From the NCBI GenBank assembly GCA_964016885.1, contig OZ024741.1, forward strand, positions 239,258,001 through 239,322,000: a stretch of DNA of 64,000 nt, written 5' to 3'. Position numbers and translations under genes: made by a program. Below, one piece after another: positions 1,820 to 27,575 of this stretch. This stretch comes from Eledone cirrhosa. Lineage: Eukaryota. Every line of letters begins with the position of its first letter. The stretch's first letter is position 1. The notes beneath the pieces were generated by a model. It was not told where the DNA came from. It saw only the letters and a program-made list of their open reading frames with translations, and did no database searches.

Positions 1820-2035
1820 CCACCACACTACTACCAGTACCACCACACTACTAGCAGCACCACTACACTACTACCAGCATCACCACACTACTACCAGCAC
1901 CACCGCACTACTACCAGCGCCATTACACTACTACTACCAGCACAATATTACTACCCTACTACAAGTCCCACCACCACACTACTACTACTACCAGCACCTC
2001 TGTCACACTGCTACAGCACCCCTACCAAATCACTG
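1820..2035. repeat. degenerate (CAC/CTA)n trinucleotide repeat
   Basis: low-complexity CACCACACTACTAC tract. Confidence 0.85.
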
Positions 2036-2719
2036 ATAGTAATAACATTGAAATAAAATTATTAATAACGGATGTTGTAGTTATAAAGAACACAATACAA
2101 TATGAAGCTAGTTATAGTGTCAACAGTATCGTTAGAACGTCAGAATGTTTTGTGATATTCTTTCCAGATATCTGTGCTCTCTAGGTTCAAATCTCACTGA
2201 GATCAACTTGGCTTTTCATCCTTTCGAGGTCAATAATAAAAAAAAAAAGTGTCAATCTAGTACTGGGGCCAATTCTTCTATATCCCTTTCACACTTCTTT
2301 CTCATTTCTTTTCTAGAAGAAATCAGCTGTGTTCAGACCTGGAGAGGGGATGGGCTCCATCAGGTTTAAAATACTTTATGTAACTACAGTGCTCCTAGGA
2401 CTATGCCAGGAGTTAGAGATCCATACATACACATATAATGTCAACATGCCAGGAAATACAGTTTCTTTACACGCAAAAACACCACCTTATTCTAAAAATA
2501 TATCCAACAAAAACCAAGTAGTGTACCAGTTTATCAGGACAATCCCCTTCACTGTGCAACACTCACTACACAACCACAAGCTAGATAACTGAACCCATCG
2601 AAGAAGGGGTCAGTCAAACAGTTTATCCATTTCAGAGCTTTATCTACTTTAACTATTTACCTCAGTAAACTGTCTTAGCAATGACTAAACCAAGAATCAT
2701 TACAAGGTTCTATTTTTTG

Positions 2720-3225
2720 CAGCATCACCTTACACTATCACAACACCACATCAATATACTATCACAGCACCACCATAAACTATTACACTACCACATTACT
2801 ACAACAGTACAATATCACAGCAGCACCACCACCACAATACTACAACATTACACTATAAATGCACCACCAACACATAATTTATTGCTACATTATCACAGCA
2901 CCACCATCCACACTACAACACCACTACACTATCACAGCACAATCATCCACACTGTAGTGGCGGCGGCGATAGTGTAATGGTGGAAGCAGTGCAGCAGTGG
3001 TGGTGGTGGTAATAGCATGTGGTCTGGCATTGCAGTAGTGTTTAGCAGAACAGATTGGTGCTGTAATAGTGTGGTGTTGGTTGTAGTGTAGTTTGTTGTA
3101 TGTGCTGGTGGTGTTACTAGTAATGTGGCGGTTGTAGTGTGTAGTGGTGTTACTAGTAGTGTGGCAGTTGAATTGGTTGTAGTGTGTAGTGGTGTTGCAG
3201 TAATGTGGTAGTACTTGTTGTTTGT
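2720..3225. repeat. degenerate trinucleotide repeat; a CAC/ACT-rich half is followed by a GTG/TAG-rich half (inverted arrangement)
   Basis: strand composition flips near 2955. Confidence 0.75.
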
Positions 3226-4096
3226 TGTTTAACCTAAACTCTCCTTTAATTCAACAGACCTATGATCAGGTCTTTTTATTTAGAAATACTATATTCAGTG
3301 TGTTCTTATAATGAGTGTGATTTGAGAGAGATTTGCTAGTTATTTCTAGCAGGGCGAGCGGCTCCATAAAGACTCAAGCTTATTGGTTCAAGTTAATGGT
3401 GTTGTGTGCAGCAGTATGGTGGCTTTGATAGTCATGATGATGGTAATGGTGTGCTGGATTGTATAGAGGTAATATGATGGTGGTACTAATAATGGTGGTA
3501 GTGATTATGGTATGATGATGATGATGCTGGTTATGTGAAACAATGTATATACATAAATATACTTCTACAAATAATAAAGTAATGTACATGAGTGATATAG
3601 GTAATATTATGTTTAAAGCATTTTATATTACATAGAACTACATATTTGGTAATATGTAACGGTACGTGTGTGTGTGTATACATACATACATACATACATA
3701 CATACATACATACACACACTCGTGTGTAGTCCTGGGAATGGACAGCACAATACGGGTATATGTATATACCCGTATGATACTGTATTTTTGTATTAAGCAT
3801 CCCCTGTAGACCTAACCAAAAGTGCAACAAAGAGACATATATGAGAAAAAAATGTTTAGCGACCACACCACCATCTTTAGTCTACACCTTCACACCACCC
3901 TTTTCACTAGACATGCAGTAAAATACCATCACAAACATCCCATTCTGGAGCAAAACTACTGAAATTATTTAATTAAATATATATATTATGATATTCACTT
4001 GTTTACTCTCTTAAAATCCTTTTGTGAAACCATGTGCTTAGTCTCGCCATTGTCAAACAATATTTATATGTAAATACAAAAGAAAAACAAACTTAC

Positions 4097-4465
4097 TTTT
4101 ATTAGAGAAACGGTGTTGTTATCTGTGACATGTTGACTATCATTGAATGTCCACTGTAATCAATAGCTATGTGTGTGACTGCTGAATTAGTGTGACAATG
4201 TCTTCATGTTGATGGATAAACGATACAGATAGACAAACAGTCGAACTACCTTCCCAACCCTCTCCTTACTTTGATATCCGTCTTGTTTATCAAGTGCGTG
4301 CCTCTTTCTCTCAGTTTGCTGTAGTTATGGGGGAAACATCATCTCTGCCCCTACCACACGTACACACATTCAGCCTCTGACACATACATAAACGTTCACA
4401 CAGCAGTCAGCCTGTCACATACATACATACACAACAGTCAGCCTGTAACACTAACAGTTAGCCTT
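4097..4465 (-). promoter_or_regulatory. divergent protocadherin leader (5'UTR) exon, no ectodomain exon in the window
   Basis: shares TCCATCAACATGAAG.CATTGTCACAC and GGCTAACTGTTAGTG with the other leader blocks; GTAAG donors at 4096 and ~4269; no clear TATATAA. Confidence 0.55.
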
Positions 4466-6490
4466 TGACCCAGCAAAATATTACTACTGCTTACGGAATA
4501 TTTAAATCTCTAAACAGCACCTTCACTTTGGTTTCAATTTCATCCGGCAATTGATTAAATACTATCTAGTCTAGAAGATTAGGAGAAACTCCGTCACCTT
4601 AAAAGTCAAATCAAATTAAATATAAATTCAATAATACTTGACCTAATTTTTCTAAAATTCTTTTATTTATTTTTTTAAATAGAAAAAACTTTAAGAAATA
4701 TTAGTTCTGTTGATCGTGTGTACTTCTGTAATATTGATTGTTTACATAGACATGGAACTGAGTAGGATGTTTCAGATCAGTAGAAAGTGGGGTTGTTTGT
4801 ATATGTTTTATCTAAGAGATAAAGAACCGACTAAACCTCCGTGTAGTCGCTCGACTTGCTAGAAATAGCAACCAATTCTCCCTCATTTTACACACACACT
4901 ACCGTCGTAAGAGAAAAATGGAAGGACACTATGCAGGGGCGGTGGAAGCATTTAGGAATTAGGAGAGGGGGGGGTTAGTTGTAGTGATTAGTTTAGCTGT
5001 TATCAAATATCAACGAAGATGTAAAAAACTTCGATATGCAATAAACATAACATGTATATAAATTGTAGCGCATATACAAATAGATGTATGTTTTGATAGT
5101 TTGGGGAGAAAAATATGATTATTGGGGGGAGCCATGTCCCACCCCCTGTATGTCATTCACAAGCTGAAGGGATTTTATAAGTGGTACTCCTGGACTGCCA
5201 AGGGACAATGAGAAGAGGCCCGATGGTCTTACTGCTTGCTATTGGGCTAGAGGCAGTCGCCTCATACAGGACGTCACTGTTAGGGGATTATTTCGCTCCT
5301 CACGCCCTAGAGGTGCGACGAACGTGGATGAGAGAGTGTTATCACTATCAGTAGCCGTGCAATATCAATAAACTACATCTTGCAGTATGTGACATTCGAT
5401 ACATTAGGACATTAGAAATAGCTGGACCGCTGATGATGAAGTTTTTGTCACTATTTCCTTTATGAAATATCAGATGCTCGTGAGCGTGCTTGGATATTCC
5501 AGTGTCCTTAGCCTCGGTATCACCCGCAGCAATGCCGTGAATGTCTTGGCTTTACCTAAAGAAATTTCTGAGAGGAAACAGGCATATTCTTATAGAGTGT
5601 AAACGAGTGTGAACTTCTTTATTTTTCTATGATTTATTTCTTTTGTAAATTGTGTTTATACCAGTAAGGATAGAAGTAAAATTATACACATTAGATGATG
5701 GGAATCAAAACTGTGTCCTAAATCTGTTTTGGAGATTGTAAAGATAACCAATCCCAAGATATGCTTCTATATCTTATAAGAAGGTTTAAAATGTAGTTAT
5801 CCTTTTGGATATTATATATCCAATTAATTACAGGTGCGTTAAGTATCACTGTTATATACTGTATTACTGAATATATCTATAGATAATGTTTTAGCCAGCA
5901 CTGTATGTTAGGCTGATGTATGTATGTATGGACTGTAGCTCCTGGTGGAGTCGTAGGGGTGCTATTGTCACATATGGCGTCTTGGGCATTTTAACCTGGC
6001 TCCGCCCATCCCTCTCCATATCCGAACACAGCCGATTTCTTCCCCAAAGACAGAGACCGGGGTATAGAAGAAGAATTAGTACTAGACTGATACTTTTTTT
6101 TACCGATCCCCAAAGGATGATAGGCAAAGTTGCCCTCGGCTCAGACAGCAGAAATGAATATTGCAAAGTATTTTACCCATTCTAACGAACCTGATAGACA
6201 TACACCCTCCCAAAACACTAAACCCAAACCTTTTCTACTCACCAGTTTGAATTTTGAAGGTAACTAGACTTTTTTTTTTCTTTTTCTATTAAATTATGGA
6301 GGTCTTCGGGTTTATCATCGCTAGCAAATCAATAATCACCCGTGGCCTTTTCTTTAATTTTCCCCAAAATGAAGCGAACTTTGATATTTTTCTTTTGAAA
6401 ATATTCCTTAATTGTTGTTTGTAGAAAATGTTGTGTTATTGTGATTCCTTGTAAATAAAGTGTTGTGGTCCTTACGCATATAGCTTATGC

Positions 6491-6759
6491 CAATGGTTTC
6501 AAACTCAAAAACTCAAAATGGTCCTGGGGGAGAGGCAAAGCTGGCCTAACGTTACATTAGATGGGGGTGGGGTGGGGCAATTATAATACTAATCAGCAAT
6601 GCAGTTGATAAGCTGTTATTTATTTATTTTCATCTAAATGAATACACAAAATGTAGGTGGACAGATTTTTTGTTTAAAATTTCCCTTAATTAATCACGAA
6701 AATTGTTCTACCGCGGGCCATAGAAAAGTAGTTTGTGGGCCGCGTGTTTGAGACAGCTG
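6491..6759. mobile_element. hAT-like MITE (degenerate)
   Basis: imperfect terminal inverted repeats CAATGGTTTCAAAC / GTTTGAGACAGCTG with subterminal GCGGGCC motifs; TSD decayed. Confidence 0.45.
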
Positions 6760-7280
6760 GTTTATTGCGTAACATAATCATGAGCGTTTTACATTTTATC
6801 AGACATTCAAAAGTAAGAGACTTTGCCTTTGCAGCTTTTCAGAAATATACCTGCCCCTTTCTCCTAGGCTGAGAACTTGCTGACTTATATCGTATAGTTA
6901 CTCATGTTCTTAGCCTTACTTCACTTGTATCTAAATGCCATATGTAAATAAATATAACATGAATAGGAAGACGTGTGGTGAAGCCGTCAGCATGCGAAGT
7001 AAATTGACAAGAACGAATAGAAGATAAGATGAAACCATACCTAATAAGAGGGAGGGTATACATGTTATATACAAACACACACTCATTGAACCATCACAAA
7101 ACTAAGAAGTTAAAGGTAATAAAAATATAAAGAAATGAAGAGATAACATCATATACACACATACTAGTGTATATACAGATACACATATATAAAAACACTC
7201 GTCTATGCATAAACATGCATCAAAACTAGCCCCGCTGTTACATAGCAATAACACACTAACACGAGTCCTTAGCACATAGA

Positions 7281-7316
<36 letters not shown>

Positions 7317-8561
7317 CATACACTAAGCCGGTACAAACTGTATGTTAGTCAAATATATTGAGAAACCAGGGAAAATATCACTAGAGTTTAATTAACAATT
7401 TTCTTACTAATGAAATAATAAATTCATAAAGTATGTGTTGTTGTTTAGCCCAATGGCGTTCGAGCTGTGATGATTACCTTCTTTTTGTATATCAAGTAAT
7501 ACATTATTCATCCCTTTAAGACGGCAGGGGGAGATTTGGCTGCTGTTACCAGCAGGTTTAATAGAAGCTTCCTCCAATGTTATAGTGAAAGTCAAATCAA
7601 TCGACTATACTATCCCTCACAACACACAGAGCTCAAATTCCTATATATCATTCAACATTATAACCATTTTTCCTGTTACTGTTTTTCTTAAGCAGCATGC
7701 CAAACCTACGATAAAAAAAAACCCATTACAAATGTACGTGACCAATCGGTTTTTTTCTTTTTCAGCATTTGTTGGCCTATATTATCCATTGCGTTTCTCC
7801 TTTAAAGTAGTGGAGTGTGTGGTTAGAAGGATATCTAGCATTCCGAACAACCACATAGGAGTTCCTGGTTCGCTCCGTTTCTTAGAAATTGGATGCTGAT
7901 AGGAAGAATGACTTCGCTAATAGCTAATGAGTAATAATGAGCGAAGGGTTCGAATTTGCATTAAAATACTAAATGCCTGCACTTCTAAAAGGGCTAGATT
8001 GATTTTCCCGTAGAATCAATGAACTATTAAAGCAATTTTAATCATGCGAAAACCTATCTGCTACATACACACACACACTTAGCGACTCTGCGCAACTAAC
8101 TCCGAGCGTATCTCACCTAATATAATAAATACATTATATCTTATTAATAAGTATCTTTAAATTCAACAATTAAAACAATTGTACTACTGAAAAAAAGAAA
8201 GAAAAGCTGAATACTAATGGTAGAATCGACTCAATGGGAGGGGGGCATATAAAATAAACAAAAACCAAGTAATTATCGCTTATATATAAATCATTTGAAA
8301 ACTGATCTCCGTGAAACTGGCAAAATCTGTAAAGCGGCCGATAAAATGTCCGCAGCATTTATTCAAGGCCTTTTACGTTCAAATAAAATAAACTACTATT
8401 GAAATACTGAAGCTATTTAATATTCCCATAAAAGCATTCGAGATGTGAATGGTATTGTGACGGATCATAATGAGGAAACATCAAATTCTATTAAAAAGCC
8501 ATTAACTCTACTTCATAGATCAATTTTTTTTTCTTGTTTGTAAATGAAATGCGCGTGTGTG

Positions 8562-8612
<51 letters not shown>

Positions 8613-9101
8613 AACAGAAATAACAACACAATCGGTACAGTATATGGAAGGAATAGATTAGGTTAACGCTTGAAATAGCAGGAAGAGGGTCTTAATGTTT
8701 CGGACGCTAGTCCTTCATCAGAAGAAAGAATGAGAAATAAGATAGATTGAAGGGACGGGCGGGTTGGAATTGGAAAAAAATGTCTTTAGATAAAAATAAC
8801 AGGTCCATTCATGTTGACATATACACATATATGTGTGTGTGTGTGTGTGTGCACGTGCTTTTGTATAATCTTCAATATATGTAAATATATTAGTGTAAGT
8901 TAGGTTTTATGTACATTGTGTGCGTGTGCGAGCGCATCTATAGGGGTGGGGAGAGGACGGTGAGTATATTATATGTACGCGTAAATAAAGACTATACTGT
9001 AACAATATAATTTCTATCCTGATACAAAATAGTTCAACCGTGCCGCACCATGAATTAAATCGTTTCACCAACTGTCTAAACACAACGCATGTTTCTAATT
9101 A

Positions 9102-9237
9102 CCGTATTTCCCGGCGTCGAAGACGCTACTTTTTTCCTAAAATAAGTCTCAAAAATCTACCATGTGTCCCAAAGGCCGAAGGTTGTTTATTTTTTTTTGT
9201 CTAAATTAGGGTGCGTCCTCGAGGACGGGAAATACGG
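9102..9237. mobile_element. Tc1/mariner-pogo type MITE
   Basis: TIR CCGTATTTCCCG..CGAAGACGC / GCGTCCTCG..CGGGAAATACGG with TA on both sides. Confidence 0.8.
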
Positions 9238-9449
9238 TATACACAGACACACACAATGGTAAACGGTTTTATACAAACATACACACACATACATACGTAC
9301 ACAGCTAAATTAGTTTATTATAATGATATAGGTAATCAATAAACCATCGTAAAGTATACACATCCTCTTGCAAACATACATTGTCAATACAGCAACACAA
9401 GCGAATGCCCGTTATCTATTTCCACGCGTGTGCGCGAGTTTGTTTGCTT

Positions 9450-9532
<83 letters not shown>

Positions 9533-9546
9533 TAGATAGATAGATA
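9450..9546. repeat. (CA)n(TA)n(TAGA)n compound microsatellite
   Basis: direct inspection. Confidence 0.95.
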
Positions 9547-11069
9547 CGAATATAACGACATTCACATCTGTTTTGATGGTTGTGTTTGAGTGTGTGGAGG
9601 GTGCAGTGACAAAGTATATGTGGTGTATATGAGAGAGAGAGAGAGAGAGATTAGTGTTATTTAGTTCATATGATGGAGTTAGTCATATATTTGGAATGTG
9701 AGTTCCACGGAACTCTCAGACACATGTGTAACTTCCACAGTTGGTGGAGTAGTGTCGGTCGCCGGTAATAATATAATGGAGAGTGTACGTGGTCGCTATC
9801 TGTTAGAAATAGCAGCCAAATCCACCTCAAATCATATTCTACTGTCTTAGAAAAAGACTACAAAAGAGAAAAGAGAGGATAGACCCAATAGTTCACAGGC
9901 ACATACTTAAAACCACTTAAGAGAAGGGAGGAAAACAGACATTAGCCTTCTGTATTAATTTAATATAGAACAGGATTCAAACTTAGTAATCCTGATATCA
10001 TTGGCTCCATGACACTTTGGGAAAGTATCTTTTGCAATAACACTGGATTGACTGAAACCTTGAGTTAATTGGCCAGATGTAAGCCTGTCAGATGATCCAA
10101 TATAGTAATACAGTGTCATGTTGATTCTGCTCAAGAATTACGTTATGGGTACAATCTATATGGAATACTCAACCATTTACATCTTTATCGTTTATCCACG
10201 CTCGCATGTCAAAATACATTTTTTCCATGGACATTACAATCAGATAATTTGTGGCATTGTTTATTTTTTCACAAGTAGAGCCAATTCGTTTTTATTTTTT
10301 ATTCTCTCTCTCCTACTAATAAGTTTGCTGTCAGTTTACATGTAATTCTGAGAAAGTTTCATTAATAATTAAATAAAATTAAATAATTTTATTGATAAAT
10401 ATCACTAACACTGGTTAACTTTTAATCCTCGGCAAATGCTGTATTGAAGGCATATGTACATGCTGCATTTTGATCAAAAGTATATGGGAAGAAAGTTCAC
10501 ATCCAGAACTTTCAATTGATATATAATTGTCCATGGAGAAAATGTATTTTTGCATGAAAATTATGAAATAAAAAGTGGATTATTGCGTGGTCAAACTGTA
10601 CTTGACACCCCTTTTCGGAGCTCTACTGTGATACCTAATATCATTATCATCATCATTTTTACATTGACTTTTCCATGTTGAAAATGTTTTACAGCCAGAT
10701 GCCCTTTCTGACACTCACTCCCTTAGTCACTTCTTACAGCACACAGGGATATGATGTACATATTCTAAACCATATATATATATCAACAAACATAGCTTTA
10801 TTAAAGATTGGTGAAGAAACCAATTATGTATTCCATCCATACAATAGGTTATGTACAAATATAGGAATAATATTAAAGCCCAAAGAGGTGAATTGCCAGA
10901 ATCATTAGAGTACTGAATATGTAGTGTTCATTCTTGCTCTCTACACTAACTGGCTATAGTCAGATAATATACAGAACTGTAATTGATAAATATTTTCCAT
11001 TAGTAAAATTTGCTGTCAACTTGGGAAACTCTAACAATATATATCATAGGATACAACAAGTATCCTACT

Positions 11070-11520
11070 GTTATAAAGTGGTAGTATTGGTTTCACAATA
11101 AAAAGCACCCAGTTCACCCTATAAGGTGGTAGTGCAGGTGCCACCAAATCCACCCTACTGGTGCCACAATAAAATGTTCCCAGCCCACTCTGTAAAGTGG
11201 TAGTGCTGATGCCCTGATAAAATACACCCAGTCCACCTTGTAAAGTGGTAGTACTGATGCCAATAAAAAGCATTCGGTCTACCCTGTAAAGTTGGTAGTG
11301 CTGGTGCCATGACAAAGCACTCAGTGCTGGCGTTATGATAAGATGCTCTCGGTACACACTGAAAAGTGGTTGGTGTTAAAAATGGCATCCACCCATAGAA
11401 ACCAAACTAAATACATATCGTATGGGAAGACATGGTCACCAGATCTGTCTAGCCTCAATATATGACAACTCCTCTAACCTATGTAAGCATGGCAAATAAA
11501 ATTTAAACAGTGCTGATGAT
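11070..11520 (+). mobile_element. retroelement 3'-end family carrying the ~48-bp AAAAGCACCCAG..CTGTAAAGTGG tandem unit (old copy)
   Basis: about six degenerate units followed by GGCATCCA..CATAGAAACC and a TGATGAT tail, as at 24935-25822. Confidence 0.65.
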
Positions 11521-11614
11521 ATATTTGATTATTTTTGATGTTTTGAAAATTCTATATTCTTTATTTGATGTTATTGATGATAATTAAAAGCATCATAGTA
11601 GAAAGGGATATTAA

Positions 11615-11820
11615 CCCTTTCAATACCCAAACTGCTTGAAACTACCTCTAGTTCTATGATACAGAACGGTCTATATTTATCTGAAAAAATTTCATCATAA
11701 TTTTATGTAAGTACTTTTGTTAAGTCATGTTCCAAACCCAAGCTTAATAATGAAAAAGTTATTTCACTAATTTTCAAAGTATAGGCAATGTCTTTAAGTA
11801 GAAATATAGTAACAAAAGGG
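11615..11820. mobile_element. piggyBac-like MITE
   Basis: TTAA|CCCTTT ... AAAGGG|TTAA termini with TTAA target duplication. Confidence 0.7.
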
Positions 11821-12004
11821 TTAAAGCAAGGTACAGACTATGTAAGAAGGCAATTGTAGCTCTGTATTAATGCAAAATATAAACAAATGTAGCAAAGTTG
11901 CAAAAGCAGCAACAAAAAAATACTAACATTCATAAAGATAATCAATTCTACTTTTTGTATCAGTATAAATAGAATCATATATAAATAGAATACCTTCACA
12001 ACAA

Positions 12005-12340
12005 GGATAAAGACCCCCTACAGTCACAAATGACCATAGAATTTGCACCTAGAAAATTCCCCTCCATGGCACAAGTCCAGGCAAGGTTGTGGAAGACCAG
12101 CAGTCACCCATGCATACCAGCCTCCCCTCTTCATGCCACTGATGTTGTCCAAAGGAAAGGCAATGGTCAATACAGCTTGGCACCAGTGACATCACAACTC
12201 CTTTTTACAGCTGAGTAAACTGGAACAATGTGAAATAAAGTGTCTTGCTCAAGAACACAATGCATCACCCAGTTCAAGAATCAAACTCACAACCCCCCGA
12301 TTGCAAACCCAATGCTCTAACCACTAAACCATGTGCCCAC
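12005..12340 (-). mobile_element. tRNA-derived SINE, second family (another copy at ~21035-21320)
   Basis: minus strand starts with A-box-like TGGTTTAGTGGTTAGAGC and a B-box-like segment; body (GGAAGACCAGCAGTCACCCATGC, CCAAGGGAAAGG) is shared with the 21.0-21.3 kb copy. Confidence 0.7.
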
Positions 12341-12670
12341 ACACAACATTCAGGAAATTGATCATCATATCATAGTAATTATTAGAAAATCTAAGAAAAA
12401 TGTAATGTATGTATAGCTACAGTTTTTAACTAAGTCATACAGTATAAAAGGAACAAATGTAAATACATTTTTGTTATTCTCTGTATACACAGAAAAACAC
12501 AAGAATTTGACTTTACACATTTCACAGCTAGTTTAGTGTTCGTCTAAAGACAAATACTTTTATCATTCTGCCTATGAAGAGAATGTATAACAAAATGGTA
12601 TACACTGGTCAAGCACAAACCAGAACTTAAATGATTATGGTTAATTATGTTAAGTAATTTAGCATCGTAC

Positions 12671-12769
12671 CTGACATTTCTCCTGTCTTCTGCCCTTGCT
12701 CACTTGTCTTGTAACAGGTAAATAAGTCACTGACAGTTACATAAGTTTCTTTCACTACTGTATTTTCTG
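12671..12769 (-). pseudogene. degenerate or divergent homologue of the protocadherin first cytoplasmic exon
   Basis: acceptor TTTGACAG|CAGAAA and donor ATGTCAG|GTAC mirror the functional exon (TTTTACAG|CAGAAA ... ATGTCAG|GTAG); TCYKTSEQ aligns with TSCKSSGQ; 99 nt instead of 154. Confidence 0.55.
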
Positions 12770-13229
12770 CTGTCAAATGAAAATGAATTCCCAAGTTAAA
12801 TTGAAACAACAACAAAAAAGTTTGAGGTGTTGTGTTGTGATATTTTATTACTGTGTTTCTAATGAAAGACACTGCCTATGATTTTCAAATAATTTTGAAA
12901 ATAATCAAGAACTTAAGAGATTTAGTATAATAACTAACTCATTATTTATCTGGTGTGAGGGCAGTGGATTGGCAGAATCAGAGCATTAGACAAATGCTTA
13001 GCAATATTTGTTCCAGCTCTTTATTTAATGAGTTCAACTCAACCTTTTGCCTTCCATCCTTCAGAGATTGATAAAAAAGTTCCAATCAAGAATTAAGGTC
13101 AATATAATCAACTTTGCCCTCCCCATAAATTGCTGGCCTTGTGCCTAAATTAGAAATTGTTAGATGTTTTTTTTAAATAAATATATACACTTAAAAAATT
13201 TTGAAGTGAAACAAAACAAGAGTACTTAC

Positions 13230-13630
13230 ATTTGCTGTGTGTAAAATCCTTTGTTATAAACTGTAAGTTGGTCCCAATGTTCTTTTGTTAATGGTTGTCT
13301 GTGTCACTGCTGCTATGGTGTGACAATGGCTTCATGTTGATGGAATAGTGTTGGTAGCGAGTCAGTGGGAACCAACAGTTCCTCTCAGTCTTGTGTATGT
13401 GTGATGTTTATGGAATATATATATTTATATACACACACACACACATATGTATATATGTGTGTGTGTGTGTGTGTGTAAGAGATAAGGGAGGTGCTTACTC
13501 CAGGTTCACTCAGGTAGGTGTGGTGTTCCCCTCAAAGAAGAGAGAAAAAGGGAGATAGTGACAAGATAGAATATTAGCTACACTAACTCAGCCATAAATC
13601 TATATAATACCAATGTCTCATGTAGAGAGA
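13230..13630 (-). promoter_or_regulatory. orphan protocadherin promoter and leader exon
   Basis: high identity to the leader blocks of A-E; TTATATAG at 13600-13607; GTAAG donor at 13229. Confidence 0.75.
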
Positions 13631-14052
13631 CATAAAAATAATTTTGAAAGAGAGAGTATATATTAGTAAAACTAAAGCTGATTTGTGTATAATAAATTGC
13701 TAACTAAGGAATTAATAGAGTGTATAAGACAATAGGTGCTATATATATGTCTGACCTAAATCTGTTATGGAATAATAAATAATAGACTGAAATATAAACA
13801 AACTCCACAAAGTCTTCATACTTTAAACATTCATATTTTCTTTTATTTTCATAAACCAAATATCGCAGTCTTTTTATAAATGAAAGTTTCCAAAAATTGT
13901 CATTAACATTTGCTGATTTAATCTTTTCAAACAATGTCCATAAATATTTTCCTTATTTCGTTTTACATTAAAACTTTTTTTAATATATGAAGGAAACACT
14001 TAACATAGAAATACTCATTATAATTCTCACATAAGTGACATATAATATTACT

Positions 14053-14119
14053 GAACACACACACACATACATATATGTGTGTGTGTGTGTGTGTGTATAT
14101 ATACAAATATATACAAATA

Positions 14120-14169
<50 letters not shown>

Positions 14170-14212
14170 CATATATATATATACATATATATATATATAC
14201 ATATATATATAC

Positions 14213-14259
<47 letters not shown>

Positions 14260-14524
14260 CATATATATACATATATATATATATACATATATACATATAC
14301 ATATATATATACATATATATATACATATATATATATACATATATATATATACATATATATATATACATATATATATATACATATACATATATACATATAT
14401 ATATACATATATATATATACATATATATACATATATATATATATACATATATATACATATATATACATATATATACATATATATATATACATATATACAC
14501 ATATATATATATATACATATATAC

Positions 14525-14575
<51 letters not shown>

Positions 14576-14594
14576 CATATATATATACATATAC

Positions 14595-14659
<65 letters not shown>

Positions 14660-14660
14660 C

Positions 14661-14717
<57 letters not shown>

Positions 14718-14718
14718 C

Positions 14719-14769
<51 letters not shown>

Positions 14770-15121
14770 AATATATATATATACAAATATATATATACAT
14801 ATACAAATATATATATACATATACAAATATATATATACATATACAAATATATATATACATATACAAATATATATACATATTATTATTACTATTATAATAA
14901 TAATAATAATTAAGCTCTGTTGCATACATAGAGCACTCTTTTTTCCTGGACTTTTCCGATGGAATTACTTCATTTATATATATACATATACAAATATATA
15001 TATATATACAAATATATATATATATACAAATATATATATATATACATATACAAATATATATATATATACATATACAAATATATATATATATACATATACA
15101 AATATATATATATATACATAT

Positions 15122-15198
<77 letters not shown>

Positions 15199-15285
15199 AA
15201 TATATATATATATATATACAAATATATATATATATATATGCAAATATATATATATATATATACAAATATATATATATATATATAT

Positions 15286-15320
<35 letters not shown>
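14053..15320. repeat. long (TA)n/TACA/TACAAA compound microsatellite
   Basis: about 1.25 kb of almost pure TA with periodic C, interrupted at ~14880-14975. Confidence 0.97.
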
Positions 15321-15325
<5 letters not shown>

Positions 15326-15391
15326 CAGAAAAACTGAAGCAACAAGTTAATAACATTTAGTATTGAATGTTTGTTAATAAGTTGTAGATTA

Positions 15392-15513
15392 TCAGATTAT
15401 GTTTGCATCAAGCATTGATAGTATCTGTCTTTGTGGGATGGGGTTTATGTATTTTCTTGATAATAAAGTTTCTCATAGTTGAATGGTATAGTGGTGTTGT
15501 GAACTGGAACCTC
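15392..15513 (-). pseudogene. degenerate protocadherin terminal exon
   Basis: acceptor TTTCAG; 122 nt to TGA, the same length as in B-F; phase-1 reading [39 protein letters not shown] aligns with ..YVKPPERQLPSTPDVIVS*; one internal stop. Confidence 0.65.
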
Positions 15514-16269
15514 CTGAAATGTAAACAACACTAAAATTCAAGAAAATGTTATATAATTTAAACTTCAATGTAAAGATATATATACAGTGCTTTTTCTATC
15601 TAAAATAATAGAGATGATAATATTCTCTATATGGTATTTCACAGTCTAGTGGAGTTTTCATTTGAGACTTAGTTATAGCTGTAGTAGGCAAAAGCCTTGA
15701 AGTATTTGTTAGGTCTCAGTGCTCTCAGTACAAATCTTGGCTAATTCATCTTTGCCTTTATCCTTCCAGGGGTTAATAAAATAAAGTACCAGTCCAGAGA
15801 GGTGGATTGGTGAAATTATTGGGCATTGGACAAGATGCCTGTGTTTATTCTGCCTCTGTGTTTTCTAAGATCAAAATCATGCAGTGGTCTACATAGGTGG
15901 TGGACTTAGTCTGTTGACTGATTTAATGCAAGTAGCAGAGTCCACTCTCTTGCAAACATTTGGGATAGGTCTCTGGTTTGAGGATGCTTTCCTCCAACCA
16001 GTCTGAAAACAGCAAAAAAAAAAAAAAGAGGTGTTAGTGGAGTAGATGGAAGTTTGCCAATACTGGCTTAGTTTTTTATACCTCTTATGTCAGTACTACC
16101 TGAGGCTTAATAAAGCTCAGCTGGTTTGTGCTGAGAATACCTGGAATAGGCTTATGAAACCCCACTGCTTGACTTCTAAATGCTGAGTTAATTTTTGGTC
16201 TGTGTTGAGAAAGAAGGAAGGATAGAACATGAGGCTAGCAACCTTACCTCCATTATTAAAAGGGTAGTG

Positions 16270-16970
16270 GGGTGTCAGGGAGGGGCATGTACCTCTGTAG
16301 GGAGGGCTAGCCATGCCATTTTCAGGACCGCTCGTCCTGCATTGGGTCCCACCTGATACTCAGCTCTCACCTGTAGAGAGAAGCTGTAGCATGCGACAGC
16401 GGCCACACCCCAGTAAACCGCCTTGGCTGGCAGGCCGAACCAGGTTGAGGGTAGCCGGACGGGTCTGAAACCCCCCGGTGAGTTAGATAGGGGATTCCTG
16501 CCCCTGCATGCGAAGACTGGACCCGGCGGAGTGAGTCGGGGAGGACAACATCGTCCCAACGGTCATGAAGGCGGCGACAGCAAGCGGTATGGAACACTAG
16601 GGCAAGGCAAGGCACTAGAGACGTCGTGGCCATCCACTGCAGCCAAGGAAGTACCTGGTCGTGACGGTCCTCCGCACCACCGGATTCTGGCTTCTGCGGC
16701 CGAGTGATTGGGTCCTTCAATATGCACTGGCCCTCCCATTATAAACCTTTCCCCGCACAGGTTTCTTCTTTAGCGTGCACTCCCACAGCACTGATGGAGG
16801 TAACAGGTGGAGGTAACCTCTGGGAGTTGCCAGTCTGACTCCGGTCTCTTCCCCTGCCCCCACTGTCACCAGACCTGCAAGTCAAGGATCGGCCTCCACA
16901 GCCACCTTCGTGCCCACGGCAGACGGGAACAACAATAAAGAAGATGTCATCATCGTTTACGATGGACAAC
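16270..16970 (-). mobile_element. GC-rich retroelement fragment, possibly the 5' region of an RTE-type LINE
   Basis: abrupt GC- and CpG-rich island in AT-rich DNA, beginning GTCCATCGTAAACGATGATGAC on the minus strand; no intact ORF; family assignment from resemblance only. Confidence 0.4.
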
Positions 16971-17368
16971 CAAGAAGGATTGGTAGTATCGGTAGAGGGC
17001 TGGATGCCATGTATTGCAGCAGAGTTACAGCTCTTTACAGTCTGAATTCAAATCCCACCGAGATTAACTTTGCCTTTCATCCTTACAGGGGTCGATAAAA
17101 TAAAGTACCAGTAATGTACTAGGATAATTGCTGGCCTTGTGCCAAAAGTAGAAACTATTATTAAAAGATTTCTACAAAAACCACAAACAAATTCAATCTA
17201 TTTGTTGCCCAATATTCCAAAGGAACCAAAGGAGGTGAAAGTTATGTTATATATAAATGTTGATCATAATAATAAAAAAAATAATGAATTACTTTGTGCT
17301 ACGGGCCTGTATCAGCATAACTGACCAATGGTACAAACAACAAAGTAAAATTAAATGTAGATACTTAC

Positions 17369-17705
17369 AGTGACTGTGTGTAAAATCCTGTTATAAACTG
17401 TGAGTTGGTCCCAATGTTCTGTTAATGGTTGTCTGTGTCACTGCTGCTATGGTGTGACAATGGCTTCATGTTGATGGAATAGTGTTGGTAGTGAGTCAGT
17501 GGGAACCAGCAGTTCCTCTCAGTCTTCTGTGTATGTGTGATGTTTACTGAGTGTGAGTGTATACATGTGTGTGTGATACTTACTCCAGCCTCAATCGGAC
17601 TAGATGATGTGTTTCCCCACACAGAGAGAAGACAATATCAGCTCCACTAACAGTTAGCCATAATATGTCTATATAATACCAACATGTTTGATGTAGAGAG
17701 ACTGA
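17369..17705 (-). promoter_or_regulatory. orphan protocadherin promoter and leader exon directly downstream of gene A
   Basis: TTATATAG at 17669-17676, Inr-like TTAGT about 27 nt downstream, GTAAGT donor at 17368; near-identical to the leaders of A-E. Confidence 0.75.
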
Positions 17706-18062
17706 CACACAAATAGTCAATTTTGAAAGGAGATTTTATATTAATAAAATATTACTGATGTTGATTATATTAATATCATTAATCAGTTAAGATGTGTTTG
17801 GTTGGGTTTTGTTATAGAAGCTAAAAAGAAACAAATTCTTTACATGCTATCAATTCTACTTTTTGAAGCCAAGATTTTGGCATTGAAGACAGTTTTATAA
17901 GAATTTACATTTGTTGTAAAACAATTTCATCAGATTTATAATTTAGAAGGATTTTATCAAATTTCTTTGAAAAGTACATTGTTGATTCACATTTTCTCTT
18001 ACTGTTTTGTGAAAATTATTTGTTAGGGTAAGAAGAGATTGGTTTGTGGTGTTCTCTTAGAA

Positions 18063-18181
18063 TTAGCTGACTATTACATCTGGTGTTGAAGGTAACTGTC
18101 TCTCTGGAGGTTTCACATATCTGTCTTGGTAATGGTCTCTCTCATTGTTGCTTGAAACATCAGGTGTGACCCTATATAATC
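18063..18181 (-). CDS. protocadherin A terminal coding exon (GLYRVTPDVSSNNERDHYQDRYVKPPERQLPSTPDVIVS*)
   Basis: acceptor ATTTTAG, open in phase 1 to TAA, homologous to the terminal exons of B-F. Confidence 0.8.
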
Positions 18182-19149
18182 CTAAAATATGTAGAAATAC
18201 AAAGAAACTGCAATAAACATACAAGCATTAGGTATTTTCCATACATACAATACAATATACAATACCTTTTAAAAAATGGGATCGTAAAATAATATCATTG
18301 ATTAAATCGACCCAATACTTGACTGATACTGATATTATCGACCCAAGATGATCAGTAGTCTAATTGTTTGATCAATCGAACAGCTTATTCATGAAATTAA
18401 CATGTAAGTGGCTGAGCATTCCACAGACACGTGTACCCATAACGTAATTCTCGGGGAGATTCAACTTGACACACTGTGATAGCTGGCCCTGAATTACAGA
18501 TACAGTTCATTCAATGTGCTTCTAAATAGTTGCCATCTTCCTACTCTCACTGACAAGGCATGGGTCAACCCAGGGATATGGTAAATGACACTTACCATGC
18601 AGTGGGATCACACCCAGGGCTTAATAGTTGCTGCTGCTTCTGCTACTATTATGCCTACAATATGCAGACACTTCAGTTCAAAAAATGAAAGTAAATTATA
18701 TGAGCTCCATACTAAAGTAGATTAAAGTAAACCATCCAAAATGTAAACAACACTTTTTAGTTATTTCTGATCCAGCAGACTAAAGACATTACACTATTGT
18801 CCATCCAGTATTTTATTGAGATATCGTGTATCTAAGACTACATTATCCAATGTGTCCTTCTTTCTTTAAATGGTATAAAATGATTTAAAGGAGATTTGGC
18901 TACTATTTCTAACTGGTCAAGCGACTAGATAGAGGCTACCTTATTGGCTCATGGTAGTAGTAGTTGATATAGTCTATAGCAATGTTTCACTGTCATAACT
19001 GTAAATGTCAACAATGATGATGATGAATTAGTTACAAGAAAGAAGCCAGAAGTCTTCTGTAATCAAGAGACAAACTGCTTTGATTAGGAAAATTGTCAGG
19101 AACCCAAGATGCACTACATTTGTATGTAACATATACAAATAATTCAACA

Positions 19150-19370
19150 GATGCCTGGCTTGGTTTTCTACAGCTAACGCCAACTACCTTACAGGATGAA
19201 CAGGGTGGTTTCTGTTGTGACACCAGTACAACTACCTTTGTTGGTGGATTGAGAGCTTTTTGTCATGGCACCAGTATGACCTCCTTACCAAGTGGACTGG
19301 GTACTTTTTGTTATGGCACCAGTATGACCACTTCACTAGATGGACTAGGTGCTTTTTTTATCATGACATA
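19150..19370 (-). repeat. degenerate copies of the ~48-bp-family tandem unit
   Basis: GGTGGACTGGGTGCTTTT-like motif repeated about five times. Confidence 0.55.
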
Positions 19371-20144
19371 AATATAATCTATGCATTTGTACACATTCTT
19401 ATTTTAAAAACCTGTAACTCCTAGTGGAGCCATAGGAGCAATTTAGTGATATATGGTGTTTCTTGGACATTTTAAACTTGGTTGAGCCCATCCCTCTCCA
19501 GGATTGAGAACAGTTGATTTCTTCCAGAGAAGAAGAGAGAGTGAAAGAGATGTAGTAAGAAAGAGAAAAAGAGGAATTGATCTCAGTACTGGACTAATAT
19601 TCTATTGACCTCAAAAGGATGAAAGATAAAGTTAATCTTGGAAGGATTAGAACATGGAAAGCTGGAATGAATACCACAAAGCACTATCTGATGTCTAAAC
19701 AGCTTTGCTAATTTGTTGCCTATACACATATATATGGTCAAATATGTAAATATATGTACATGGGCATACATCTGTTAGCGTGTTAGAAATAGATAGAAGG
19801 AAGAAAGGGAAATCAATGCTACTAAATCCTACTTTAATTTTTATGTGTAAAAATTTATGATGGAATAAAGAGCACGATGACTATTAATGACAGAAAATTG
19901 GGGGAAGGAGCAAGTTGTAGGAACAATTTGAAGTTAATGAACCAAAAATGTTGAAATGGTAGATAATGATACATATATTGCTGTTGGTAATGATTATGAT
20001 ATTGAAAATAAGTGATAATACATACATTACTATTAACACATTGACAGTGTGTGCTGGGTGCTTTTTGCCGTGTCTTTTACATGTCCACTTTACAGTGTGA
20101 GTGCTTTTGATATGGGAAGGAATAACTACCGCCAGTAGTCATCA

Positions 20145-20680: not shown

Positions 20681-20834
20681 CTGACATTGCTGGTATTTCT
20701 TCATACTGTCTACTTGACCTCTCACTCCAGCACTGTCCACTACTCTTACAACTGGTCAATGTATCAGTAGGAAAGTTAAAAGATGGTCTGTTGTCTCCAT
20801 AAGATGTCACCTCTATAGGTTGACTATATTTCTG
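20681..20834 (-). CDS. protocadherin A first cytoplasmic exon (QKYSQP...RQYEEIPAMS)
   Basis: TTTTACAG acceptor, GTAGG donor, 154 nt, phase 0 to 1, conserved in six copies. Confidence 0.85.
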
Positions 20835-21395: not shown

Positions 21396-23744
21396 CTTCA
21401 TAGATTTTTGAAGAGATCTGTTCATTGTTGATGTCTTCCAGTCTTCAGGATAGTAATGGCTTCTAGACTGACTATATCTGTCTGATATCTCTCCTCGATT
21501 ACCTGACATCACAGATACACTGTTGTTACCTTGATAGATCAACTGTCTCATCTCATTACGACATTGGTATGCCTGTTTCTCTTCTGTTGTTCTAGCTGAG
21601 TTATTTCTAACATTGTTACATCTCACAATACACAATGTTATAGAAACCACAATAGCTATAGATACTATCACAGCTGCTACTACAATGATAATCAACAATG
21701 TTGCATCTATTGTGTTATCAGTTGATACAGGGACAGCTGTGAACATTGGTGATGTCTTGTTACTAACAGTCAGTGTTAAAGAGACACTAGTTGTTGCTGA
21801 CAGAACTGGAGTACCACTGTCTTTCACAACAAACTCCAGTTGATATGATCCAGCATCATTTTGGTAAACTGTGCGAGAGTAAGATAAGACACCAGTGAAT
21901 GAGTCCAGTTTAAATAATTGTTTTTCATTACCTGAAAGGATTTCATACCTGAGAAAAGCATTCATGTGACTGTCTATATCAGAGGCTTTCAGAAGTGTGA
22001 TGTCATTCTTACTTTGTGGATGATAGTGGACATCAAGAGTGAAAGGGTCAACACTAGGAAATGTAAAATATGGAGCATTATCATTTTTATCTAATACTTC
22101 CACTTCAACATTCACTGTGTTATTTAGAGATGGTGTTCCATTGTCTTTGACTAAAACCTCAAAGTCATAGAAATCTCTGTGTTCTCTGTCTAAAGACTGG
22201 TTTGTTGAAATAAAGCCAGAGTTGATAATCTGGAATGGTAGACGATATTTGTGTTTATTTCTCAGATAATAACTTAATTCACCTCCCTTACCAACATCTG
22301 GGTCTGTAGCATTGATAAAACCAATAGGGAAATTAGCTTTGTCATTCTCATAGGTAAGGAACTTGAATGTATCTTTGGTAAAGTGTGGTTTTACATCATT
22401 CACATCTAACACTTGTATTGAGAGATCTTTATCAGTTTTGAGAGGAGGTAATCCTTTATCTTGACAGGAGACAGTGAAGTGATAATGTTCCTGTGTCTCT
22501 CTGTCTACTGCTTTCTTTAGAACTATTTTATATTCTTTAGATCCCATTGACTGTAGTTTGAAGGTATCGTGTTTGATATTACAGCTGACCTCTCCATTGT
22601 GTCCAACATCATTGTCAGTGACCATCACATAAGCAATGAAACTACCAACTTTGATATCTTCCAGAATGGTAGCTGTGTTGTGATTTGGTGTAGAAATAAA
22701 GTTGACATCAATATTTGGAGGATTGTTCTGTTGGTTGATAACATTTACCATAACAGTTGCTATGGCACTGAGTGGTGGACTGCCTCCATCTCTGGCTTCA
22801 ACATATAATTTAAATGATTTCTTTTTTTCCAAATCAGAATGTTTAGTCAAGAAAAGCTCCCCAGAATCTTTATCTATTATGAAATTACGTTTTGCTTCAG
22901 TTGATGTTGAGAGACTGAAATGATAAAAGATTTTACCATTTTCTCCAATATCAGAGTCTTTTGCCAACATGACAATAATTGGTATATTTCTTTTGTGGTT
23001 ATTTTGTATGGAGACATTGTATGTCTTCTCAGAAAATATTGGTCTATTATCATTCTCATCTTTGACAGTAATGTGTACAGTTAAGACACCTTGTTTGGGT
23101 GGATTTCCTCCATCTTTAGCTATCACTTCTATGTCATAACTGTCTTTTATCTCTCTATCTAACTTCTCATCTAATATAATTTCAAGGGAGGATACACCAT
23201 CAGCTCTTTGAAATGTAGACAAAGAAAATTGTTGGTTACTACCTTTTAATTCATAATTTACTAGTCTGTTCTGTAAACCAACATCATCATCAATTGCATT
23301 GGGTATTGATCGTTTTGTCCCCTTGCCCTCAGTTTCATAAAAATCTAAATTAATTTCTTCAACAGGAAACTCAGGTGTATGGTCATTGATGTCTTCTATC
23401 ATTACCTTAATCTTTAATATCTTTATAAATTTCTTTGCTCTATGAACTGCTACCTTAATTGTGCGAAAACATTCTTTCTCAAAACTACACAGAGACTCAG
23501 CATCCAGTGTTTGTGTAGTATATATCTTTCCATTACTGGTCACATTAAATAGCTGTGTCCCCTTCTGTTGTAACTGACTAAATGATAATAATGCAATGTC
23601 CTGTAACTGTGAATCAGCAGTGATGTCTCCTATATTGATAATACGACTGTTTTCTTCTTCCACATGGTAAACAATGTCTTCTTTAGAGAGTGAATAGTGA
23701 AGTAGAGACAGTAATATCCATATCTTTATTAAGACCATCTTCAT
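21396..23744 (-). CDS. Pcdh: protocadherin A large exon (signal peptide, EC1-6, TM, juxtamembrane); spliced protein ~873 aa
   Basis: DxNDN/LDRE/DxD cadherin motifs, C-X5-C in EC1, hydrophobic TM; AAG|GTAAGT donor at 21395; acceptor 28 nt upstream of ATG (exon starts 23772). Confidence 0.95.
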
Positions 23745-24934
23745 TAGTAGGATTAGGTATCAGTTAATCAGCCTGTAAATAAAAAAGGAAAACTATGATT
23801 CAGGTGACAAGAAACAATTATATAGTGTTGGTAAAATATAGAAATATGAAGTCATACAAGACACAATATTTTTTTCTGTTGTTTGGCATGAGGATATGAC
23901 TGCAGCTATCAATTTCATGTGATCTTTGAGATGAGACACATTATGTCATCAGGAAATCCTGAGAGTTAATGTTTTGAGAAGAAATGACAGACCATATCGG
24001 CTAGTGTGGGTTCTCAGAGGCAACAAACAGTAGAAGAACCGTCATATATATCGAACAGAATTACAGATATCTCATGTAGCCAGATTCTGAAGCGGTGGTA
24101 AACAACAGCATTCGAACTGTGAGGAGCAAATGCAGTAAGAGTCACCTCCAGATCTACATCATCGTGATATAATCTACTTCATTTACATTGGCATGTACAG
24201 TTACATTTTAACAAGTTATAGACCGGAGATTATTTATATACTGTGGTACCACCCGTAATACTGCTATTGCCTTTTTCTGCAGTTGATATTGTTCACGAAC
24301 CTCATATACATATTTTATCCCATGATGTTGATTCATCTGAGATCTTAAACAGTAGAATATTTAAATAATAGTCCTTGATATGATGACACTCACTTAAAAT
24401 ATGTATGATGAAAGAGGGCATCAAATATCACAATCCTTCTGTCTCCGTGACCCTTTTGTTGAAATTTATCCATCATTCACATTTATATTCAATACCACCA
24501 CCCTCTTTGATACCAACCATCAATTTTCACCTATGAAACTCTTATCCTTCAACCACCACCCTCACCACTACACTTTTCTGTAGTTCTCTCCTTAGCTGAC
24601 CATCATGTCAATGTCTCCCAATTTACATTCATATTCTCACCACCACAGATCTCTGTTGGTATCCAACAGTGGAAAGGAATCTTTTTCTATGCAGAGGACA
24701 TGACACAATCTCTAGTGCAACCAGTATATTCAGTTAAGGGATTAGTGTAAGGAAAGGCATCCAGCCATAGAAACCATGCAAAAAATTAGAACATACAAAC
24801 AAGATGTGAATAGAAACTAACTTGAGCCTTAGTGACCCATGCAACCTATACACACATGGAAAACCAATGTAAAAAGATAATGATGATGATGATTTGTTAA
24901 TTCATAAACAACTGAGAAATAGTTTATCTCAATC

Positions 24935-26671: not shown

Positions 26672-27065
26672 ATTCATTGTGTAAAATCCTTTGTTATAAA
26701 CTGTGAGTTGGTCCCAATATTCTGTTAATGGTTGTCTGTGTCACTGCTGCTATGGTGTGACAATGGCTTCATGTTGATGGAATAGTGTTGGTAGTGAGTC
26801 AGTGGGAACCAGCAGTTCCTCTCAGTCTTTTCTGTGTATGTGTGATGTTTACTGAGTGTGAGTATATGTGTGTGTGTGTGTAAAAGAGAGTGAAGGATGG
26901 GTGATGCTTACTCCAGCCTCACTCAGGCTAGATGATGTGATTCCCTAACAAAGAAGTGATGGAGAAAGAAAGAAAACATTATCAACTCCACTAACAGTCA
27001 GCCATAACCATCATCATCATAGTAATAAGTCTATATAACACCAACATGTCTGATGTAAAGAGACT
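26672..27065 (-). promoter_or_regulatory. promoter and non-coding leader exon of protocadherin A
   Basis: TTATATAG at 27031-27038; GAAT|GTAAGT donor at 26671; the large exon begins with an acceptor, so an upstream exon is required. Confidence 0.75.
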
Positions 27066-27575
27066 GATATAGTAATAACCAATGTTTAAAGGAGATCTTA
27101 AATTAACAAAATATTACTGATGTTGGTCAATATTTTACTAACTAATAATGTTAATATAATATAGACAATTATATTTAAGATCTGACCTAAATATACACCA
27201 AATCTGTAATGGAGGATGTATGAACAAATATTGAAGAAATTCTAGACTTCTCTTAGATATTTATTTTAGTATTAATTTTTAATATAATTTCTTACATATA
27301 ATGTTTTAATAATAATGTTTTAAAAATCAAGATATATATTTTACATATATTCTATGTTAATACTACAGATCTTTCAAATAAATAAAAATCAACATTATTG
27401 AGAATATTCGGGTAAAAATTAGTTCATATATATATAAAAAAACTTGTATAAAACTCCAGTGTGATTATAGAAAATGTAATGTGTGTGTATATTATTGAAA
27501 TTTACATACTTTGTATGTAAAAGTCATATTTAAAATATAGCAGTAAGTGGTCAATATTTAGTAACTGACCAATGG

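Follow-up and report, generated by a model that had tools for sequence, protein, structure and literature searches.

How can leader exons remain almost perfectly preserved at the edge of a protocadherin array when no ectodomain exon follows them and the coding relics nearby are decayed? The window that raises this question, a stretch of 64,000 nucleotides analyzed as a whole, contains five intact octopod protocadherin genes (A-E), arranged as a tandem array on the minus strand. Beyond gene A, the last intact gene in transcription order, the original prediction had described three leaders lacking any ectodomain exon, at 17.4, 13.2, and 4.1 kb, together with two relics of cytoplasmic exons.

The order of an intact unit is leader, 2.4 kb ectodomain and transmembrane (TM) exon, 154-nt exon, and terminal exon, and the five ectodomain exons are interleaved with six first-cytoplasmic and six terminal exons in the window. 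The genes A-E are tandem whole-gene duplicates of the coleoid type with their own cytoplasmic exons, and all five contain open reading frames of about 800 codons, with the six repeats and TM segment in one large exon that define the coleoid clustered protocadherins. In gene A, which served as a reference, we located the leader (26672..27103), the ectodomain and TM exon with six cadherin repeats (21396..23772; six PF00028 stretches in Pfam), the first cytoplasmic exon of 154 nt (20681..20834), and the terminal exon up to the stop codon (18063..18181), all on the minus strand. From there to position 17368 there is no AATAAA or ATTAAA, and of the six intact terminal exons, that of gene A alone lacks such a signal before the next leader; non-canonical polyadenylation hexamers are present at 17967-17740. 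The leader is non-coding, its upstream open reading frame (uORF) closes within the exon, and the introns between leader and ectodomain exon in the intact genes are about 2.4-5.2 kb long (the acceptors of D and E being estimates). The closest annotated proteins, GAB1604110 and GAB1604111 of Argonauta hians and XP_036365290 of Octopus sinensis, are 82% identical to gene A and form one clade with the genes A-E (SH-aLRT 98) in a quick tree of 48 out of 166 proteins plus the five window genes. Among these matches the two species have two and one copies, respectively, versus five in the window, as compared by proteins alone.

The absence of cadherin-repeat sequence from positions 1-17300, as originally claimed, was confirmed by all searches. 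The best tblastn match of the five window proteins to positions 1-21300 had an E-value of 0.07, a set of 120 homologues gave no match below position 17960 at E<=0.05, and 63 further proteins gave only two weak plus-strand matches of 28 amino acids (6565-6648, E 0.04-0.07). A profile of 152 proteins (hmmsearch --max) found no domain in 1-18000 and recovered gene A in the control stretch. Moreover, the gaps between leader and relic are 1,855 and 460 nt, versus 5.8-9.2 kb in the five intact units, so that a 2.4 kb exon cannot fit.

With a profile of the five intact leaders, nhmmer identified the leader copies at 17.4 kb (E 4e-103), 13.2 kb (E 1.9e-81), and 4.1 kb (E 4.2e-11), whose first intron bases are 17368, 13229, and 4096. 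The first two, hereafter the orphan leaders (17369..17705 and 13230..13641, minus strand), retain the TATA-like TTATATAGA at 17676 and 13607, the upstream GGA/GTAAG donor at 17583 and 13498, the main donor at 17368 and 13229, and a 15-codon uORF (17469-17422 and from 13335), all of them features that the original prediction had listed for these two leaders. These signals are kept in both copies even where identity to the live copies is only 82-93%. The cores of the orphan leaders (17526-17369 and 13392-13230) are 97-98% and 96% identical, respectively, to the intact leaders A and B, and the intron downstream shows 69-75% identity. The 17.4 kb core has no substitution in 138 nt relative to the majority of intact leaders and equals any live leader, and the 13.2 kb core has four private substitutions in 141 nt, where intact leaders have 0-2.

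The two predicted relics fared differently. The terminal-exon relic (15392..15513, minus strand) is genuine: it is a frameshifted copy with 64-67% identity to the terminal exons of live genes, in which the acceptor AG is retained, and it has an nhmmer E-value of 0.004. Its score was reached by 0 of 60 shuffles of the region with the gene A query and by 1 of 60 with the gene B query, and its frameshift-aware protein score was 48, against a maximum of 33 in 40 shuffles. The putative first-cytoplasmic-exon relic (12671..12769, minus strand; 99 nt versus 154) has both AG and GT but only borderline homology (E 0.3; score reached by 5/60 and 8/60 shuffles). In a splice-site-anchored test the counts were 8 of 500 for the gene A query and 331 of 500 for the gene B query, and frameshift-aware comparison found no protein-level signal. 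The open 32-codon frame in this segment has the wrong entry phase and no Pfam match, and was treated as a chance occurrence. An origin of the relics from the divergent Argonauta paralogues GAB1604108, 4112, and 4113 was rejected, as these scored 30-34 on the terminal relic versus 47-53 for main-type tails. Short O. bimaculoides models that consist of cytoplasmic exons alone (XP_052828901, A0A0L8G7I9) were also set aside; their exons are intact, and the models may stem from a fragmented assembly. Altogether, the 17.4 and 13.2 kb units are homologous to their parent unit with its order and strand preserved (borderline for the first-cytoplasmic relic) and have lost their coding capacity, as indicated by the missing ectodomain trace, the short gaps, and the frameshifted terminal relic.

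The divergent leader at 4.1 kb (4097..4296, minus strand; donor 4096) is a different case. Its clear homology spans about 4090-4296 and includes a 45-nt block at 87% (4172-4216), its uORF ends after six codons, and no TATA-like match was found in 4090-4800. The 4.1 kb of window to its left lie within the normal first-intron length, and therefore its headlessness is not established. The deletion of ectodomain exons, proposed for all three units, is thus supported for two of them, given the gap sizes and the lack of any trace, and not for the third. For the 4.1 kb leader, a likely role is that of a normal first exon belonging to the neighboring protocadherin left of the window. In Argonauta, GAB1604110 and GAB1604111 are flanked on one side by the main array (4082-4107, some two dozen accession numbers) and on the other by divergent genes (4112-4115), including 4113, for which orthologues exist in three Octopus species. 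By analogy with this accession order, which comes from another genus, we predict a conserved divergent protocadherin left of the window.

The DNA between these remnants is rich in repeats. A very high-copy short interspersed repeat, probably SINE-like, lies at 17033..17163, next to a GC-richer repeat at 16300..16960 with deep cover in sequencing runs X1 and X2 and thin cover in X5, likely a lineage-specific insertion. An (AT)n-type microsatellite block (14040..15330) separates the terminal relic from the second orphan leader. The observed-to-expected CpG ratio is 0.14-0.20 in the array, 0.29 downstream of the 4.1 kb leader, and 0.78 upstream of it, in a CpG-undepleted block (4466..10300) that is likely intergenic spacer or recent insertions. 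The open reading frames 16370-16738 and 7474-7896 had no Pfam match, and among 25 of 205 inverted repeats listed for 4400-11000 there were only microsatellites.

Why, then, are the orphan leaders so well preserved? The original prediction had mentioned gene conversion as a side option; in our analysis it gives the best fit. At four-fold sites gene A differs from B, C, D, and E by only 5 of 158, 6 of 157, 3 of 157, and 7 of 159, respectively, whereas the introns flanking its ectodomain exon align at 70%, with a shuffle baseline of 71%. Synonymous sites are therefore homogenized to 96-98%, the same level as in the orphan cores. The orphan leaders likewise combine a near-identical core with a divergent downstream intron, and the private substitutions of the 13.2 kb core are a further point in favor. 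Since conversion holds synonymous sites at this level among unalignable introns, selection need not be invoked for the leaders, and their near-identity is no proof of function. Terminal exons are weakly homogenized even in live genes (78% between A and B), and a dead terminal exon would thus easily escape conversion. Some observations run counter to this explanation. The 17.4 kb core is as well kept as that of any live leader, and both orphan copies retain all their signals even in the less similar parts. The 154-nt exon is strongly homogenized among live genes (96%), but conversion would have spared its putative relic and not the leader. In addition, the informative sites of seven leaders, with variable columns that are few and mixed, revealed no clear tract of conversion into the orphan copies.

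Taking these results together, we consider it probable that the 17.4 and 13.2 kb loci are two deletion-truncated pseudogene units with leaders kept near-identical by passive conversion, and that the 4.1 kb leader begins the gene that follows. At the edge of the array, deletions, possibly by unequal crossing-over or mediated by repeats, would have taken out 4-5 kb or more of each unit together with its ectodomain exon, a size estimated from comparison with the intact units. The short coding exons would then have decayed, as is apparent for the terminal relic and borderline for the other, while the leader core of about 160 nt may have been repeatedly overwritten from many near-identical live copies. 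Any RNA from the orphan leaders would be non-coding, and read-through from gene A may cover the 17.4 kb copy.

Alternatively, the orphan leaders could have become additional promoters maintained by selection, with splicing across more than 13-17 kb to the following gene's ectodomain exon. A non-coding leader with a closed uORF could join any downstream ectodomain acceptor, every recognizable leader signal is intact, and the 17.4 kb core is conserved like live cores. However, conversion alone can explain the identity, and such transcripts would have to cross the retained relic acceptors and the polyadenylation hexamers at 15849, 13984-13847, and 13029-12849. They would also traverse the 4466-10300 block, and as octopus methylation falls on gene bodies according to the accessible part of PMC9476566, the lack of CpG depletion there gives modest weight against long-standing transcription, although recent insertions could also explain the block. 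From the sequence we regard promoter inheritance as unlikely, and its full form, in which three stacked promoters, including two inherited from dead neighbors with deleted ectodomain exons, would drive the flanking protocadherin, as slightly more doubtful again. The contrast between pristine leaders and old relics would need no conversion if the leaders had headed live genes until lately and were then fused by deletion to remnants of other, older dead units, leaving young pseudo-promoters. Both gaps do contain interspersed repeats as potential deletion seeds, but this scenario requires two fusions as well as old relics that were already in place, and a breakpoint was not located; we find it improbable.

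The remaining alternatives are best weighed against contigs from sequencing runs X1, X2, X4, and X5 (4 of 23), of which X4 appears to be RNA. One X4 contig matches the gene A ectodomain exon up to acceptor 23772, followed by 30 unaligned letters. Another, with no differing letters and four gap letters, spans 17658-18105, from the gene A terminal exon to beyond the TATA-like box, so that an RNA contig over the 17.4 kb promoter is probable. At position 17527, the sole X4 contig counted has a 2-nt insertion that is present in none of the seven window leaders compared. Two exact low-depth X4 contigs lie at 15654-15988; over the terminal relic X4 cover is limited to the edge of the neighboring contig. 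As contigs show presence, not absence, neither this gap in cover nor the insertion was given weight, and the X5 depth of 7.6 in the relic bin, which could be due to repeat edges, was not taken to indicate an orthologous relic. The X4 contigs at 17658-18105 and 15654-15988, and the missing canonical signal after gene A, would suit a functional non-coding RNA, either a decoy transcript or, for the 17.4 kb copy, the 3' UTR of gene A. Such a role nevertheless seems very improbable: a contig over two genes represents no single transcript and no strand, the X4 run is itself only presumed to be RNA, the non-canonical hexamers beyond gene A offer other ends, there is no Rfam match in 1-18200, and read-through would not demonstrate function. 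A loss of ectodomain exons by misassembly near the repeats or the 14-15 kb microsatellite is unlikely, with hardly any probability left to it. Near-identical paralogues and repeats do surround the region, the comparison began at 15360, and no listed contig bridges 16254-17658, but if copies had been collapsed, the cytoplasmic exons should still be intact and not frameshifted relics, and X1 and X2 contigs, possibly from the assembly's own sample, agree without other letters over 15360-16254 (in overlapping pieces) and 17658-18105. No joint or loose end was found at 17368 among those listed (15 of 822; 24 of 4448), both sets being dominated by a high-copy repeat.

Truncated units with converted leaders would fit what the accessible text describes for coleoid sub-arrays, namely head-to-tail, multi-exonic whole-gene duplicates homogenized by conversion, with fragmentary reading frames throughout the squid clusters (PMC9068888, PMC6339937); pseudogene fragments together with conversion were already published there (PMC9068888). 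As far as those sources go, the published fragments are decayed reading frames and no well-kept leader is described, whereas here the ectodomain exon is wholly gone and the non-coding leader is best kept. A search by title and the beginning of the abstract, with subscription papers and supplements mostly outside its scope, found no description of headless leaders in cephalopod protocadherins. The vertebrate alpha and gamma clusters, in the available portion of PMC4978886, likewise have many near-identical tandem promoters, gene loss and degeneration, and conversion that is strongest in C-terminal ectodomains. In contrast to the vertebrate layout, where a promoter heads a coding variable exon joined to shared constant exons, each live gene here carries two cytoplasmic exons of its own, and no coding part belongs to the leaders, orphan ones included.

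On the most probable reading, the case is mostly ordinary birth-and-death where a cephalopod protocadherin array ends, in a small and clean form. It also cautions that, in an array undergoing conversion, an almost perfect promoter copy does not show function, and that reads derived from leaders need private variants before they can be assigned to a single gene. Should the orphan leaders indeed be spliced to the following gene, this would qualify the published view that coleoid protocadherins diversify only by whole-gene duplication: with a frame-free non-coding first exon, deletion of an ectodomain would pass a promoter to the next gene, giving a mirror image of the vertebrate layout, with variable non-coding heads and one coding body, and a natural test of single-promoter choice within an array.

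We found five ORFs of ~800 codons on the minus strand within the window, named genes A-E from left to right, with 93-98% DNA identity among them. Gene A encodes six cadherin repeats. Of the 120 matches listed for it, the best are protocadherins of the octopods Argonauta hians and Octopus sinensis, at 82%, which marks this genome as that of an octopod, one without annotation in the collection searched. Each unit comprises, in order, a leader (a non-coding first exon), an ectodomain/TM exon, a 154-nt exon and a terminal exon. The stretch 62305-63760 holds cytoplasmic exons from a sixth gene, with the gene E leader after them; the ectodomain exon of that gene falls beyond the right edge of the window. 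Sequencing run X4 appears to be an RNA run, as indicated by high depth on exons, zero depth in two bins at 23865-24494, and a contig that reaches the gene A ectodomain acceptor (23772) with 30 letters left over. A spliced exon upstream of the ectodomain exon is thus supported by X4, the leader-to-ectodomain junction itself being an inference. In seven leaders, a stretch of 57-106 nt from GGA/GTAAG to an AG ahead of the conserved core (26911-26829 and equivalents) could be a short intron cutting the leader into two exons. The 48-nt tandem repeat at 24905-25700 belongs to a family dispersed in both orientations, with related copies near 11070-11320, 19180-19360, 20040-20100, 32500, 37830, 41500 and 61400.

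Searching with a profile built from the intact leaders of genes A-E, we recovered all three extra leaders of the original prediction, with donors 17368, 13229 and 4096 (E-values 4e-103, 1.9e-81 and 4.2e-11, respectively). The 17.4 and 13.2 kb copies retain every signal attributed to them, namely both donors (the main one and GGA/GTAAG upstream of it), a 15-codon uORF and the box TTATATAGA, which we call TATA-like as a description of the motif. Their cores carry 0/138 and 4/141 substitutions relative to the intact-leader majority, compared with 0-2 in the five intact leaders, and identity is 96-98% in the core, 78-82% upstream and 69-75% in the downstream intron. Behind these leaders, coding relics follow the donors at 1,855 and 460 nt, versus 5.8-9.2 kb in intact units. 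Two cytoplasmic-exon relics had been proposed. The terminal one (15392-15513) is significant (E 0.004; score reached in 0/60 and 1/60 shuffles), with a protein score of 48 against a maximum of 33 over 40 shuffles, whereas homology of 12671-12769 to the first cytoplasmic exon is borderline (E 0.3): its score was reached by 0/734 local windows but by 5/60 and 8/60 region shuffles, an anchored test gave 8/500 and 331/500, and a protein-level test gave no signal.

The absence of cadherin-repeat sequence at the left end was borne out by the searches made. Left of gene A, the best E-value with the window's own proteins was only 0.07; 120 homologous proteins gave no match below position 17960, and 63 further proteins gave two weak plus-strand matches. 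A 152-protein profile that recovers gene A found no domain in 1-18000. A DNA profile produced one weak match at 18927-18983 (E 0.005), within a gene A intron, and no credible ectodomain match left of it.

The third leader is a different case, and of the three supposed headless leaders only two are supported: the 4.1 kb of window behind the 4.1 kb leader is within the 2.4-5.2 kb span of first introns. In a quick tree of 53 rows, Argonauta GAB1604110/111 and O. sinensis XP_036365290 fall into one clade with genes A-E (SH-aLRT 98). Argonauta accession numbers parallel locus tags in the five records giving both, and we assume that accession order reflects genomic position. By this order, the main array (4082-4107) and the A-E relatives (4110-4111) are followed by divergent genes (4112-4115), of which 4113 has orthologues in O. 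vulgaris, O. sinensis and O. bimaculoides; a divergent gene would therefore be expected left of the window, and the divergent 4.1 kb leader fits such a gene. The block 4466-10300 is not CpG-depleted (o/e 0.78) amid a strongly depleted array (0.14 in 10301-14000, 0.20 in 17000-64000), and the value in 1-4096 is 0.29. Since methylation in octopus is described, in the sections available of PMC9476566, as mainly on gene bodies, this pattern resembles a spacer ahead of a separate gene, although insertions of recent date could also have produced it. A MITE-like element of ~140 nt with terminal inverted repeats of ~14 nt lies at 9100-9240.

Alignment of gene A to gene B yields 67-73% identity in the introns, the 3' UTR and the sequence flanking the exons (shuffle baseline 71%). 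Over the last 1,200 nt of the ectodomain exon, by contrast, gene A differs from B-E at only 3-7 of 157-159 four-fold synonymous sites. Although no protein constraint acts on such sites, they stay 96-98% identical beside baseline-level introns, which points to frequent conversion restricted to homologous exons. A conserved core in diverged surroundings is the shape of the orphan leaders too, so passive conversion, as had been suggested for dead leaders, would suffice to explain their identity; it is unproven, and no conversion tract into leaders was demonstrated. Against it stand the unsubstituted 17.4 kb core, the survival of signals in the less-identical 5' part of the orphan leaders, and the loss of an intact 154-nt exon, which is normally homogenised. 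Gene A (17369-27100) itself looks mosaic: B-E-type in leader and ectodomain, it has a terminal peptide nearer the main octopod subfamily, and neither its introns nor its 3' UTR can be aligned to B-E. An X4 contig at 22930-23772 differs from gene A at 13 positions and from genes B-E at 28-67, with B-E-type letters at 3/3 sites checked; it may represent a paralogue located elsewhere than in the window, or else an allele in which patches have been converted.

Contigs from 4 out of 23 runs were compared over 15360-24800. X1 and X2, DNA-like and from one sample, possibly the assembly's own, match the window without a differing letter across 15360-16254 and across 17658-18105; no contig among those listed spans 16254-17658. 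Loss of ectodomain exons through misassembly is highly improbable. Among the joints and loose ends, the rows listed (15/822 and 24/4448) are filled by a high-copy repeat, and none of these rows lies at donor 17368, whose use may or may not occur. The repeat at 16300-16960, with a summed depth of ~7,000-10,700 in X1/X2 versus 3-14 in X5 (organism B), is likely a lineage-specific transposon burst. One X4 contig over 17658-18105 reaches from the gene A terminal exon past the TATA-like box of the 17.4 kb leader. Gene A is the sole one among six intact terminal exons without AATAAA/ATTAAA before the next leader, although weaker hexamers are present. These observations fit gene A read-through across the 17.4 kb promoter, strand and single-transcript origin being beyond the contig's reach. 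Two exact low-depth X4 contigs lie at 15654-15988. A functional non-coding RNA from the orphan leaders is, on our assessment, very unlikely. A recent deletion joining the leaders to older relics is slightly easier to entertain and still unlikely. Inherited alternative promoters seem unlikely as well, though somewhat less so. The published view, in the sections available of PMC9068888 and PMC6339937, is that coleoids rely on whole-gene duplication, not alternative first exons.

None of the papers listed by our literature searches describes headless leaders of cephalopod protocadherins in its title or the opening of its abstract; supplements of genome papers may hold relevant gene models. The available parts of PMC9699675 and PMC13218726 add nothing on gene structure, and the vertebrate protocadherin layout and domain-biased conversion are described in PMC4978886. 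For coleoid protocadherin arrays, conversion and pseudogene fragments are reported in the sections available of PMC9068888 and PMC6339937. The 17.4 and 13.2 kb leaders mark two real headless units of this array, which we consider more likely than not to be deletion remnants with converted leaders.
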